Part shown: positions 13,646 to 56,857 of the stretch, one piece after another
Layout of the letters: each line of letters opens with the position of its first letter
Position numbering within the stretch: position 1 is the first letter of the stretch
Assembly: GCA_963706715.1 (NCBI GenBank)
Contig: CAVPNI010000002.1
Span: 608,001-672,000 of the forward strand
DNA: 64,000 nucleotides
Reading direction: 5' to 3'
Origin: an uncultured Verrucomicrobiae bacterium
GTDB lineage: Bacteria > Verrucomicrobiota > Verrucomicrobiia > Chthoniobacterales > Xiphinematobacteraceae
Program-made: the position numbers and the translations under genes
The notes under the pieces: model-generated
The model's input: only the letters and a program-made list of their open reading frames with translations
Database searches by the model: none
What the model was told of the DNA's origin: nothing

Positions 13646-13808
13646 TTGCGGAGGAAGTTCAGCGAGATGAATTATAGTCCGCCTCCCGCGCCGGACTCAC
13701 CCTTTGGGCTAAGCTTCGCTTAGTCTGTCTCCGGCCGGTTCCCCGGCCTCCGACTCGAACTGCGTTCTCATCCCACTCGCATAGGTCATCAGGCCTGCTT
13801 CGCAGACT
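13646..13808 (-). repeat. tRNA-linked structured repeat
   Basis: Follows the tRNA-Ser CCA, contains the four-hairpin module and ends in a degenerate tRNA 3' end (CTTCCTCCGCAA vs CTCCCTCCGCCA). Confidence 0.7.
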
Positions 13809-13896
13809 TGGCGGAGGGAGTGGGATTCGAACCCACGAAGGCTTTCGCCTCTCCGGTTTTCAAGACCGGTGCATTCAACCGCTCTGCCATCCCTCC
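13809..13896 (-). tRNA. tRNA-Ser(TGA)
   Basis: GGAGGGATGGCAGAGCGG...CT-TGA-AA..., long variable arm, GGTTCGAATCC...GCCA. Confidence 0.97.
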
Positions 13897-13978
13897 CCCC
13901 TTTACCTTTACTGTATAAGATTCCTCAGAAATCCTAATCCCCTAACAAACATGGACAGGGGATAGTATGTAAAGGACT

Positions 13979-14821
13979 TTAAGCAAGGGAACCTTCCCTG
14001 TTGCTCAAAGATAGGTTCTCAGCTTGAGGGTTCTTCTCAGCCTGAGCTATTTTGCAGTAGTCTCTGATTTTCAGGCTACACCACGCTACACCGACCCCTG
14101 CAAGTATCACTCCACCCACTGCAGTTGCGGCTACCAGTACGGGCCATGCTGCAACAATGAGACCTCCTGTCGCCAGTCCAGAAATAGTCACAATTGCCAC
14201 GGTTGCTGCCGCACTACCGACAACTGCTGAAAGAACTCCACCTCCTATAGCACAAGTCATTCCGGGTTTATGGTGCTTATCAAACCATCTACCGAGAAAT
14301 GTCTTATTCAGAGCAGTTTTTAAACGCGCAACCTTTCCTTTTAAATTGCTATTCTCATCTTTGAGTTGCTCCATATTCCTCTCTTCGTGTTTAATATGCT
14401 CTTTTGTAGACACTAACACGTTTTTCATCCATTCGGTTCCCTCTAGTATTCTATTAAGATTGACATCCACCTGTCTAAACCCCCGTTGATTTTTCAATTC
14501 TTGAGCGGTGGAATTTAACGTAACAGAAGAGCCGACTTCGGAATTACTTCGACTTAGACTTAGCTGAGAAACAGGATCAGCAATTTGCCGAGCCCCATTT
14601 GATGATTCAGCAATAGCCGCCTCTAAAAATGTTTCGCTACTCTGCGAAACATTGTCATCCGAAGAATGATTTACCTGCCGAGCAGCCGGTATCGGTCGCC
14701 CATTGAGGTTGGGAGAAGCTGAATCAGGAATTCGCTGTCTGCCGTCATTTGTTGGTGTTCTAGTTGTTGCGTTCGGTATTCTAGTTATTACGTTCCTCAT
14801 AGGACTTATACTATCGCTCAA
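13979..14821 (-). CDS. Orphan protein: Ser/Thr/Asn-rich N-terminus, coiled coil, long hydrophobic hairpin
   Basis: 280-aa ORF with a heptad-like segment (KEHIKHEERNMEQLKDENSNLKGKVARLK) and ~60 uncharged residues. Confidence 0.8.
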   Translation of the reverse strand: MSDSISPMRNVITRIPNATTRTPTNDGRQRIPDSASPNLNGRPIPAARQVNHSSDDNVSQSSETFLEAAIAESSNGARQIADPVSQLSLSRSNSEVGSSVTLNSTAQELKNQRGFRQVDVNLNRILEGTEWMKNVLVSTKEHIKHEERNMEQLKDENSNLKGKVARLKTALNKTFLGRWFDKHHKPGMTCAIGGGVLSAVVGSAAATVAIVTISGLATGGLIVAAWPVLVAATAVGGVILAGVGVAWCSLKIRDYCKIAQAEKNPQAENLSLSNREGSLA

Positions 14822-15184
14822 TTTTTTCTGTTTATATTGAAATGATTAGCACACATTTTATGAGAACAGTTTGTTTTACCAGTGGGCACCTATTTCGCAA
14901 CCTATTGCACTATTTTAGTTTTTTGTATTGTACGCAGGGGATCCAAGAATAACAATTTCCGGATAATAATTTTATAAAATCATTTGGTCTCACCCGACTG
15001 AAATAACGCCGCATATTAGTCGTGTTAGAAATTACTCTATTTTTTTCGCTTCAGGACTCGGATTTGCTTTTATTACTTGCCAAAGCGACAGCGGAGCCTC
15101 TTCCCTCAGAAATAGGTCCGGGCCACGCACTTTCTTCTTGCACTACTCGCCTATGGAGCTCATTAACAGCCTACGCTTTATTGT

Positions 15185-15367
15185 ATGGTACGAAGTTTTT
15201 TTCTGCTCATCAGTGTCGCGGCCATTTCGGTCCTCGTGGGCGGGTGCGCTCAACCTGATCCAACCGGTCCGCCGAAAGAAAGCTCCATACCCTGGAACCG
15301 TCCGGCAAGTTGGGAGGGCGCCGGGGCTCTGGGAGGGCTCGGCATGGGTGGCATGGGTTCAAGATAA
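15185..15367 (+). CDS. Small lipoprotein
   Basis: Hydrophobic signal plus LVGGC lipobox; IPWNRPASWEG motif. Confidence 0.7.
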   Translation: MVRSFFLLISVAAISVLVGGCAQPDPTGPPKESSIPWNRPASWEGAGALGGLGMGGMGSR

Positions 15368-54297: not shown

Positions 54298-55389
54298 CTA
54301 CTTTGTTAACAGTCCCTTACGTACCTCAAGAGAAAGATGAATTGCTTCCAACGTCTTGCGAACGTTTTCTTTCATTGAAAACCTTCTCGCTACATCCAGT
54401 CGCACCTCTTGAGTGTCTTCCCGCACTTGACGAGGCAACCACCGCATCAAAGCCTTAGCAAGGTCCTTTTCGTCACCAACTGGCACGCTGTCGCCGAGTT
54501 CGGTATTTTCCAATATCTCGGAAAAACCATTAGCATCGGTTGTAATGACCGGCAGACCAGCGGAAAGGGCTTCCAAACACGCATTGGAAAAGGGATCGTA
54601 GAGCGTGGGCAACAGGAAAATGTCTGCCGCGGCGTAAAGCGGAGTCATGTGAGAAACCGGTCCGGCAAATACCGCGTACGGAGAAAAATACGCTTTTGAT
54701 GATCCACGCCCTGCTACTAACAACCTTGCGCGTCCCTTGAGTGCATTGACCGCATTCACCGCAAAACGTAGTCCTTTGCGCTCCCAGCCCGTGCCCGTGA
54801 AAAGGACAACCGTTTCTTCGGATGAAAAGCCGTACTGCTGACGAATCCGCATTCGATCTCCTGACAAGGGTTGGGACCCTTCGAATCCGTTGGGAATTAA
54901 AACGAGTCTTTCTTTTGGAAACTGATAATATTTCAGAATTTCCTCTTGGACCATTCGAGAGTTCGCGATCACGACGCTTGTGTGATCGGGATGGAAGGTG
55001 CAGCGTTCCAAATCTAAAATTTGTTTGTGCTTTGGATTTAGGAAGCGGAAGCAATGACGCCATCGGGGTTCAAATTGTGCGCGTCGTTGCAGCCACACCT
55101 GATGCACCCCATCTCCTGCACGATAAACATCGCATTCAAAAATTCGTTCCATGCTAAAGACACAATCCACATCTTTTTTCATCCCCTGTAGCTGATGAGC
55201 AAAGCCCAAGGGCGATTTGGTTGGAATCCTCCTCATTTCACCATAGCCCCAAGCAGTCTCCGGCCAATCATTTGACGCGTAAAAAATCACTTCCATACCA
55301 GCTTCCACCAATCCGCTGGCCAGACGACGCAAATAAGCCTCCGCTCCCCCGGTTGCTGAGTAACCACGGCGAACCAAAGCTATACGCAT
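54298..55389 (-). CDS. Glycosyltransferase family 4 (WaaG-like)
   Basis: Motifs GGAEAYL, YRAGDGVH and LPTLYDPFSNACLEA. Confidence 0.9.
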   Translation of the reverse strand: MRIALVRRGYSATGGAEAYLRRLASGLVEAGMEVIFYASNDWPETAWGYGEMRRIPTKSPLGFAHQLQGMKKDVDCVFSMERIFECDVYRAGDGVHQVWLQRRAQFEPRWRHCFRFLNPKHKQILDLERCTFHPDHTSVVIANSRMVQEEILKYYQFPKERLVLIPNGFEGSQPLSGDRMRIRQQYGFSSEETVVLFTGTGWERKGLRFAVNAVNALKGRARLLVAGRGSSKAYFSPYAVFAGPVSHMTPLYAAADIFLLPTLYDPFSNACLEALSAGLPVITTDANGFSEILENTELGDSVPVGDEKDLAKALMRWLPRQVREDTQEVRLDVARRFSMKENVRKTLEAIHLSLEVRKGLLTK

Positions 55390-55550
55390 GGGATTGGGGA
55401 AAGGAAAACGAGGCGACAGATCAAGGCAAATCTGGCTAAATCATAAAGAAACCACATGAAAGTCTCGCTTACTAGCTGCTCCAGGTCGCCTCATGCAACA
55501 AATTCCTTTATCGCCCATCGGATCTTTCAAAACCTCTCACAAGACCGCCT

Positions 55551-56552
55551 GTGAAAATCCTTTGCCTTCAACTGAAGCGCATCGGAGATCTTCTGCTCAC
55601 CACGCCAATATTGACTGCTCTGAAGGATGCCTACCCAAACGCTGAAATCCATCTGGCGGTTGATGGAGCATTTGCCTCCTTGTTTCCCTGCCTTCCTGCC
55701 CACCGCATTCTGCCTCTCCGGCGCGGGACGATCAGTGCATGGCTAACGCTACTTCGCGAACGATACGATGTTTGTTTGGACTTCAATGCCAGCGATCGAT
55801 CGTCCCTCGCCTCTTTTCTCGTACGCTCACCTTTTAAGGTCACCTATTCCCGATTTGCAAAACGTCCTTTTCGCCAAACCATTTACCACACATTTGTAAA
55901 CTCCGTTCTTAGCGAGCGCCACACTACGGATTTTCACCTGGACCTATTGACTGCTCTGGGAATTCATCGAGAGGGACTTCCCTTAAGTATCAAACTTCCT
56001 TCGGAAGCTGTGGATTTGGTGGATCATCTTCTTACTAGTGTTGGGGTGGCCCCGCCTTTTGCCGTGTTCCACCCAGGAACGTTACGGCCAGAAAAGTACT
56101 GGTTAAACGAACGATGGTTGGCAGTGACCCGCCACATCAGGCAGGTCCATTCCCTGCCAATTTTTTTAACGGGTTCCCCTTCTCAGTCGGAACATCTGCG
56201 CCTGCGTAGTCTACTTGCTCATTCCAATGAAGGACTTTGGCATGATTTAACTGGCAGACTCAATCTCGCAGAACTTGCCGCGCTGATCTCAAAGGCGCGC
56301 ATTCTCTGCGGAGTGGACTCCGCGCCCATTCACTTAGCTGATGCTGTCTCGACGCCTTGTGTCGCTCTTTTTGGTCCGACCAACCCGTATCAGTGGCGAC
56401 CCCGAAACCCCATTTCCCGTATCGTAGGCCCCTACCCCCTTCCTTACCAGCCTAAAGCTCCGGGAGGAGCCATGGATACCATTACGGTCGATGAGGTTAC
56501 TTCGGCAATCGACGACCTGCTACGAGGTCAGCCATCTTCGGAGGTGCGGTAA
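55551..56552 (+). CDS. Glycosyltransferase family 9
   Basis: Motifs QLKRIGDLLLTTP, HPG, DSAPIHLA and LFGPT. Confidence 0.9.
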   Translation: MKILCLQLKRIGDLLLTTPILTALKDAYPNAEIHLAVDGAFASLFPCLPAHRILPLRRGTISAWLTLLRERYDVCLDFNASDRSSLASFLVRSPFKVTYSRFAKRPFRQTIYHTFVNSVLSERHTTDFHLDLLTALGIHREGLPLSIKLPSEAVDLVDHLLTSVGVAPPFAVFHPGTLRPEKYWLNERWLAVTRHIRQVHSLPIFLTGSPSQSEHLRLRSLLAHSNEGLWHDLTGRLNLAELAALISKARILCGVDSAPIHLADAVSTPCVALFGPTNPYQWRPRNPISRIVGPYPLPYQPKAPGGAMDTITVDEVTSAIDDLLRGQPSSEVR

Positions 56553-56600
56553 GTAACAGGTGGTTTTTCGCTTCATGAATGTTTATAGTTACCATAAACT

Positions 56601-56857
56601 TATAGCATGACCCCTATAAAATGACCATGCCTTGTCGTTCTTTTTGCCTCGCTTGGCTCCCGCCAAGTCTCGCCCCTGTGAGGGGGCTGTCCGGCAAAGC
56701 CGGACAGGCTACCCCAGCCGTTCCCACGGCTCGGTGTTCCACCAGACTTTGTTTTAACAATCCGTCCGTATCTACAGATATGGCCAGCTTGTTAAAACAA
56801 ACTCTGAAGAAAAAATCCCGGACAACTCATGTGTCATTTTATAGGGGTCATGCTATA
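56601..56857 (-). mobile_element. IS630-type MITE (family B), long form with hairpin module
   Basis: TIR TAGCATGACCCCTATAAAATGAC; paralog of 25105-25371. Confidence 0.92.

Follow-up and report, generated by a model that had tools for sequence, protein, structure and literature searches.

A window of 64,000 nucleotides from an uncultured Verrucomicrobiae bacterium (C2:608001-672000 of genome G000, hereafter the source genome) contains five copies of a four-hairpin module, with stems H1 to H4, in three sequence variants. Four of these copies are carried by MITEs (miniature transposable elements with inverted repeats) of the IS630 family; unlike them, the copy at 13676 lies outside the MITE and directly downstream of a tRNA gene. 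An earlier note, made from the sequence of this DNA, took the module for a structure-selected sub-element, either a REP-like unit mobilised in trans or a structured RNA carried by MITEs. The locus raises the question of whether the module is a mobile unit in its own right and, if so, how it moves. Covariation and uniform junctions support the idea of a structure-selected unit that is separable from the MITE, and we consider it rather probable that the module is a non-autonomous single-stranded DNA (ssDNA) mobile element that is moved in trans.

A discrete insert with many targets

The module is a discrete insert: it has fixed ends, occupies many unrelated targets on either strand, and nests in itself. 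Among the RHS paralogues of genome G015, two are filled and four are empty, and the insert of 78 nt lies in frame between two A's with an exact empty allele. One IS3 gene has received two inserts, both antisense, and two homologues of it are uninterrupted; one intron reverse transcriptase (RT) gene has received a single antisense insert. A particular IS110 copy (L179) holds five different module variants. Three homologues of this copy were found in 300 genomes, and two of these homologues carry modules (one and two more); two matches fell in a module-free stretch, and one extended across a module site. One IS110 codon site was struck by three different variants, and a further module lies in a repeat adjoining IS110 that we take to be attC-like. 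Relative to the IS3, RT and IS110 genes the modules are oriented antisense as well as sense; sites in tRNA lie 3' of A37 and A58; and modules occur within modules and in head-to-tail pairs. No target duplication was seen at the insertion sites and no variable duplication at the gene sites, and the module is without terminal inverted repeats. The IS110 clade of L179, L258 and L260 shares its terminal five bases with many modules and has hairpins next to it that are, presumably, attC-like.

The junctions were characterised from 174 rows, which gave 144 full-length hits in 42 site clusters; the two flanking A's served as a filter and are not a result. The module is 78-93 nt long, and its modal length in this count is 78. 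At position −2 the clusters have G (24), C (14) or A (4) and never T. At position +2 they have C (17), A (14), T (9) and only twice G, which is significantly below the background frequency of G (0.27; P = 2.7e-4), and a count over 77 junctions gave no G. Just two copies have G at +2, and they form an inverted module pair beside a DUF3800 gene in genome G033 (L057:4604-4805). When filled alleles were compared by eye with their inferred targets, nine sites had C at +2 in place of G (of a purine at two of them). These are the RT gene, in which a Tyr codon became a stop codon, IS3 site 1 (Asp to Glu, judged from two of two homologues), three IS110 sites, one attC-like repeat and three nested sites. 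At nine sites where the target has A, T or C, again read by eye, the base was unchanged (RHS, IS3 site 2, three in IS110, three in tRNA, and rrB). The junction A's themselves replace G or T at some sites.

A covariance model produced 87 hits in the source genome, and by eye only two intact hits lack MITE flanks, namely the copy at 13676 in the window and C1:613032-613112. The latter, which is outside the window, is the sole intact copy in ordinary intergenic DNA. The MITE-free occurrence that had been claimed therefore holds in the window for 13676 alone, with the qualification that this copy is of the tRNA-linked repeat (TLR) type and stands behind tRNA-Ser(TGA). Model searches found the module in 16 of 40 relatives and, phylum-wide, where up to 30 candidates per genome were scored, in at least 5 of 150 genomes, and a metagenome scan returned at least 122 stretches, 80 of which were taken for analysis. 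Rfam holds no family that the module matches at gathering score, and blastn against plasmid and phage collections gave no match. The three loci from viral scans comprised one chance match, one module and one TLR-type repeat; two matches from a pattern scan of genome contigs were rejected as chance ones in GC-rich actinobacterial DNA. The modules in metagenomes often lie within heptamer arrays. The 1.7-Mb genome G030 has 41 copies on an unrelated repeat, some of them as inverted pairs (L054, L058, L061, L062), and in G026 three modules are part of a 349-bp tandem array (L050:1640-2418).

Fold, covariation and host MITEs

Re-reading of the sequence bore out the four-stem architecture and the positions of the five window copies, with slightly shifted limits, as well as the H3-loop microsatellite of the copy at 25150. 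Folded as ssDNA, the five copies have z-scores of −4.7, −3.9, −4.0, −2.8 and −3.8, and for each of them none of 200 shuffled sequences was as stable as the native one. The compensatory stem changes that had been noticed in the window hold once homologues are added. We used two alignments, A3 with 66 and A5 with 89 distinct rows, both of which were fitted to the model and consist of related rows, H4 being fixed by pattern in A5. Paired cells amount to 87.7% in A3, compared to 66.3% after shuffling, and to 86.9% in A5, compared to 64.9%. In both alignments double changes occur at all 22 modelled pairs, and none of 500 shuffles reached the score.

An unbiased mutual-information scan placed end-closing pairs that are absent from the model among the top covarying pairs. 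Two such pairs link the first base of the module to the foot of H1, and its last bases to the linker before H2. One joins the position 3' of the conserved AG linker to the position that precedes the terminal CA (A-T in 44 and C-G in 13 of 64 cells in one alignment, A-T in 43 and C-G in 32 of 82 in the other), and the other joins the first base of the module to the base preceding AG (53 of 65 and 58 of 86 cells). Both tests exceeded 500 shuffles and all slid controls. The fold that follows from the end-closing pairs is therefore one in which H1 stands beside an H2-H4 junction closed by two pairs, so that both ends of the module lie side by side. In 41 representatives, GNA triloops were present in H2 (17) and H3 (11), and GNRA tetraloops, mostly GGGA, in H1 (25) and H4 (27); GGA lies within the loop of H1 in 25 and of H4 in 26 representatives. 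G-U pairs are rare in the stems.

The host MITE was assigned to the IS630 family because its terminal repeats are shared with IS630 transposase fragments (HTH_Tnp_IS630, DDE_3), which they bound; it has TA at both ends. A terminal-repeat scan of the source genome identified 110 paired elements, which are 164-165 bp (45) or 236-267 bp (56) long, short composites (4) or longer (5). The 101 elements that are 150-300 bp long divide into subfamily A, with 24 filled and 26 empty members, subfamily B, with 30 filled and 3 empty ones, and subfamily C, in which 16 are empty, one is filled in the right arm and one in the left arm. The difference in length between filled and empty elements (247 − 164 = 83) equals module variant A. 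In 26 of 26 empty A elements and 3 of 3 empty B elements the junction falls at the identical point. The earlier note had named heterogeneous empty-site junctions as a finding that would speak against its proposal; the junctions are uniform instead, and the three window MITEs it described as lacking the module, at 1654, 2709 and 27815, are indeed all cleanly empty. Its CAA microhomology at the junction does not stand, as CAA is common only in subfamily A, subfamily B has only AA, and the C elements at 2709 and 27815 are without CAA, the rule being A|A. Nor is there a single module site in the MITE, but at least three: one in the right arm, one in the left arm that is oppositely oriented, and a second one in tandem. 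This third site is marked by two module variants that lie in tandem in one degenerate MITE (L002:148-335; C3:267647-267834).

Derived changes on both flanks of the module site are common to filled and empty copies, both in subfamily A, for one terminal-repeat variant, and in subfamily B. The module has therefore been lost or gained exactly and repeatedly. Recombination of MITE copies with each other blurs the count of these events, and conversion from a single empty donor seems unlikely, to judge from two B lineages that differ 3 bases from the junction. MITEs of 108-138 bp at C1:165028, C4:486057, C2:525021 and C3:342130 are made up of two module 3' halves, which face outward and meet at a palindrome, and look as if a doubly filled MITE had lost its centre. 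Inverted arms of short 7-base-like repeats (40835-40903 and 41271-41339) flank a filled MITE in the window, and similar arms lie behind the C1:613032 copy.

Relation to tRNA-linked repeats and other known elements

TLRs are said to have been described earlier by Egan and Landy in 1978 and by Rudd in 1999. They are presented as 150-180-nt repeats or small RNAs tied to tRNA and rRNA operons; E. coli has 22, which repeat 18-19 bp of the end of the upstream RNA and are listed as having no known function (PMC8144298). The only Rfam matches in the window are its two tRNA-Ser genes. Both have a module behind them, by different routes, one in the MITE at 43774-43965 and the other as the TLR-type copy. 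The latter is preceded by a TLR leader, and the 18-19 bp of identity to the upstream RNA 3' end are decayed at 13662-13672 and intact in locus L027 of a relative. The L027 copy, which also stands behind a tRNA-Ser gene, scored 43.6 bits on the RtT model RF00391, for which the cut-off is 45; the same model had no match in the source genome. In E. coli, rrB and the tyrT repeats have the four-hairpin core, linker and tail in equal order, and where the core ends, an A|A junction leads straight into the duplicated 3' end of the tRNA or 5S RNA (T-loop copy or 5S 3' copy). With model R2, which was trained without E. coli, the four tyrT repeats, rrB and a lys-operon repeat ranked first in 9.3 kb, with scores that are weak (E 0.003-0.02) but alignments that are in register. 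Judging from this agreement in sequence and layout, the module is homologous to the core of the E. coli TLRs (RtT, rrB), and the 13676 copy is a degenerate TLR. A match to an already described repeat family, which the earlier note had held against its own proposal, is thus present in part. The module shares hairpin order and the A|A junction with TLRs, and at 13676 also the leader; it differs from them in that the core is here a separable insert in MITEs, in genes and in itself. The TLR repeat family is known, and what is added here are the end-closing pairs, the G-to-C junction rule, and matched filled and empty alleles with repeated exact loss. The literature covered gave no account of the TLR core as mobile; most subscription papers lie beyond that coverage, and older TLR and ERIC papers may bear on novelty. 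In G030 a module sits in the anticodon loop of a duplicated tRNA-Gln (L023:1430-1711); a 72-bp duplication and an inverted leader specific to the site accompany it, which suggests that every new target has the TLR layout formed afresh.

Several features recall the IS608 group of the IS200/IS605 family: the absence of terminal inverted repeats and of target duplication, the hairpin ends, and TCAA at the right end of most module variants. In addition, a base at a hairpin foot covaries with the module end as if the two paired, which may be comparable to IS608, where a guide, GAAT, is described as pairing with TCAA (PMC5934647). Nevertheless, the module fails to group with either IS200/IS605 or REP elements. 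It differs from the former in that the source genome is without TnpA and no parent element was found, in its loose target and element-specific first base, and in the overwriting of junction bases. Its likeness to REPs and REPINs consists of small palindromic units, of GTAG before the hairpin in the source-genome variants, and of tandem and inverted pairs. Only AG of this GTAG is conserved, however; the preceding position is T in 45-48%, and that base pairs with the first base of the module. The junction is A|A, different from the C|T or C|A reported as cut by TnpA-REP (PMC8266576). Of the REP-like unit mobilised in trans that had been proposed, the part "in trans" agrees with the large number of independent targets, and "REP-like" holds as an analogy only, there being no Y1 or RAYT gene in the genome and the junction being A|A. 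RAYT-like genes near modules (L025, L099, L181; a fragment in L021) resemble, by eye, subclass 2.1, which is described as having no known REP (PMC6006769), and no enrichment of Y1 genes in carriers was seen.

The host MITE resembles the IS630-related Correia, ERIC and RUP elements in its TA ends, shared terminal repeats and long and short forms, and differs in that its in/out segment is a foreign element seen in many other contexts. Inserts of about 70 bp have reportedly been found in ERIC. The likeness to tnpB 3'-end RNAs that had been suggested finds no support, as no TnpB domain was found in the genome and no Rfam family matched. As for DUF3800 RNA motifs, no Rfam match was obtained for the module and no DUF3800 gene was found in the source genome.

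Features of the window: modules, MITEs and the TLR-type locus
Feature	Position in window	Strand	Remarks
Module variant A, 83 nt	41030..41112	+	Right arm of filled IS630 MITE
Module variant A, first base changed	43818..43900	-	Within truncated MITE
Module variant B, 93 nt	56645..56737	-	Within subfamily-B MITE
Module variant B, H3-loop dinucleotide expansion, 104 nt	25149..25252	-	Within subfamily-B MITE
TLR-type module, 3' end diverged	13673..13754	-	Behind tRNA-Ser(TGA)
Host MITE, subfamily A, filled	40903..41156	+	Terminal repeats also bound IS630 transposase fragments
Truncated subfamily-A MITE, one terminal repeat lost	43774..43965	-	Adjoins tRNA-Ser(GGA) 3' end
Host MITE, subfamily B, filled	56601..56857	-	
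Host MITE, subfamily B, filled	25105..25371	-	
Empty subfamily-A MITE	1654..1813	+	
Empty subfamily-C MITE in broken DDE transposase gene, TA at both ends	2709..2873	+	
Empty subfamily-C MITE	27815..27979	+	
TLR leader: inverted copy of tRNA-Ser T-arm/acceptor 3' strand, small hairpin, T-loop 5'-half copy	13755..13780	-	Layout as in RtT consensus, E. coli tyrT repeats
Decayed copy of tRNA 3' part, no CCA, still pairs with leader	13662..13672	-	
tRNA-Ser(TGA) upstream of TLR-type copy	13809..13896	-	

Mobilising enzyme and competing explanations

The source genome, which is 100% complete, was searched for enzymes that could move the module. DUF3800, CsrA and IntI had no match in it, nor had TnpB (PF07282), for which 8 of 14 positive controls were detected; a search for IS91/Y2 had no match, and neither had its positive controls. 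A scan of 5818 open reading frames (ORFs) for the HUH motif gave two unconvincing matches. The genome does hold IS110 (9 hits), multi-copy intron RTs and 13 tyrosine-recombinase hits. In the comparison of 16 module carriers with 24 non-carriers, none of Y1, IS110 and IntI co-occurs with the module (IS110 in 6 of 16 versus 11 of 24; IntI in 8 of 16 versus 8 of 24). No dedicated partner emerged from Pfam searches of 127 neighbour proteins, one of which was a DUF3800 protein, or when 3394 ORFs of 142 loci were clustered. An element with TnpA and the same ends was found neither in the source genome nor in 532 kb of flanks. A tblastn search of flanks with the enzymes of this genome was insensitive and missed the IS110 clade that was later seen by clustering. 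An integrase that adjoins one module was set aside, as it looks like a housekeeping XerD.

Based on the present data, we favour movement of the folded ssDNA module by a strand-transfer enzyme supplied in trans. Y1/HUH-type chemistry would, by analogy, be the most likely, because the module combines the lack of inverted repeats and duplications with DNA-type loops, a TCAA right end and IS608-like end pairing. The fold would bring both cut points together, as IS608 guides do, and so allow exact excision and joining. The incoming 3' end would impose C two bases past the cut. This C would be kept solely where the target had G, since there alone would the C-ended strand form a C-C mismatch, and such mismatches are reported to escape MutS repair (PMC5021808); MutS was present in all five genomes checked. 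The roughly 85 copies in the source genome would mostly be passengers, a few old insertions in the IS630 MITE having been multiplied by IS630 transposition, and the module would since have been lost exactly, several times, from MITEs.

A number of observations weigh against movement of this kind. The target, [G/C]A|A[A/C/T] with free positions −3 and −4, is loose, unlike the fixed tetranucleotide of IS608, and the first base of the module is specific to the element. The G-to-C rule has exceptions, in that an IS110 site is discordant and G is retained in two G033 copies, and the native bases behind it were read by eye from homologues that are only 66-72% identical. The loops of H1 and H4 are mostly of the GNRA type, which is an RNA habit, and folding energy separates neither DNA from RNA nor one strand from the other. 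No Y1 gene was found in the source genome, where exact loss looks recent; across relatives such genes were found in 11 of 16 module carriers and in 21 of 24 non-carriers, and 276 kb of metagenome flanks contained one RAYT-like gene. No autonomous copy with an internal gene occurs in the loci examined. Finally, module variants follow MITE subfamilies without sign of fresh insertion in the source genome, and the high copy number is therefore due to passive amplification.

Three other explanations have to be weighed against ssDNA transfer. The module could be the substrate of a site-specific recombinase, either of the IS110/bridge-RNA type or a tyrosine recombinase (the integrase of an integron, for example), acting with a mismatch-tolerant overlap of 2-3 bases. 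This would accommodate the overwritten junction bases at several sites and the fact that one IS110 clade is a module hot spot (five in L179, more in two of three homologues, and one in the adjacent attC-like repeat), and IS110 and tyrosine recombinases are at hand in the source genome. We nonetheless regard it as unlikely, given that neither IS110 nor IntI co-occurs with the module and IntI was not found in the source genome, that by eye none of the 87 genome hits lies within its IS110 copies, that modules break IS110 genes and do not mark their ends, and that the one adjoining integrase, XerD-like, appears to be housekeeping. Alternatively, the module could act as a structured RNA, the core of a TLR small RNA (a CsrA or Hfq ligand or a processing signal, for instance) that is under selection as RNA and is spread by reverse transcription or as a passenger. 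GGA loops in H1 and H4 recur in E. coli rrB, which is transcribed and, like rrA and rrF, binds CsrA in vitro (PMC8144298); the tRNA sites 3' of A37 and A58 and the multi-copy intron RTs would also suit an RNA. Set against these are the antisense inserts in genes, the lack of variable target duplications at gene sites, the GNA triloops and few G-U pairs, the failure to find CsrA in the source genome, and scores below 0.01 as CsrA ligands reported for 19 of the 22 E. coli TLRs (PMC8144298), and we consider an RNA quite improbable.

It could also be argued that no dedicated enzyme is involved. The module would then be an old and now inert insert; template switches that correct palindromes would preserve its stems, and polymerase slippage across a fold that joins two A's would cause the exact loss. 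Besides the agreement of variants with MITE subfamilies, the recombination of MITE copies and the lack of a candidate enzyme, partial hairpin deletions in two copies are consistent with this, as is the left-arm site, which is shared with two same-genus relatives and decayed there. Such a process accounts for loss in the source genome and not for insertion at about 40 unrelated sites, and template switching leaves both the long-range end-closing pairs and the near-constant length of 78-83 nt unexplained. We judge it very unlikely.

If the module does move as ssDNA, it may, as a tentative extension that we hold to be possible and somewhat doubtful, represent a new minimal class of mobile DNA. 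Its members would be self-clamping ssDNA units of about 80 bases, with both cut points set by the fold and a distribution that reaches from Verrucomicrobiota as far as E. coli. They would depend for movement on an enzyme new to transposition (possibly the host's) and parasitise other mobile elements, with TLRs as their footprints at tRNA and rRNA genes. This is important because the origin and function of TLRs are described as unexplained since 1978 (PMC8144298), and a TLR core that is a mobile ssDNA element would make this question testable, the source genome supplying matched filled and empty alleles. The end pairs predict mutations that block excision, and the G-to-C rule predicts changes in a mutS mutant. 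Through a 78-base unit that enters genes in frame and piles up in IS110, IS3 and MITEs, genes would also be inactivated and proteins gain inserts in a way that has been overlooked, and the enzyme behind it could be a low-specificity ssDNA integrase of a new kind.

Two further observations concern other sequences. A second small repeat family is present in the window (2253-2326, 4157-4230, 7983-8060, 34880-34957, 46509-46586 and 60106-60179); it is related to the ends of DDE_5 transposase copies, and one of its copies breaks the transposase gene located at 1860. Elsewhere in the source genome, C1:226436-231328 and its relatives make up a family of 90 large, unassigned ORFs.

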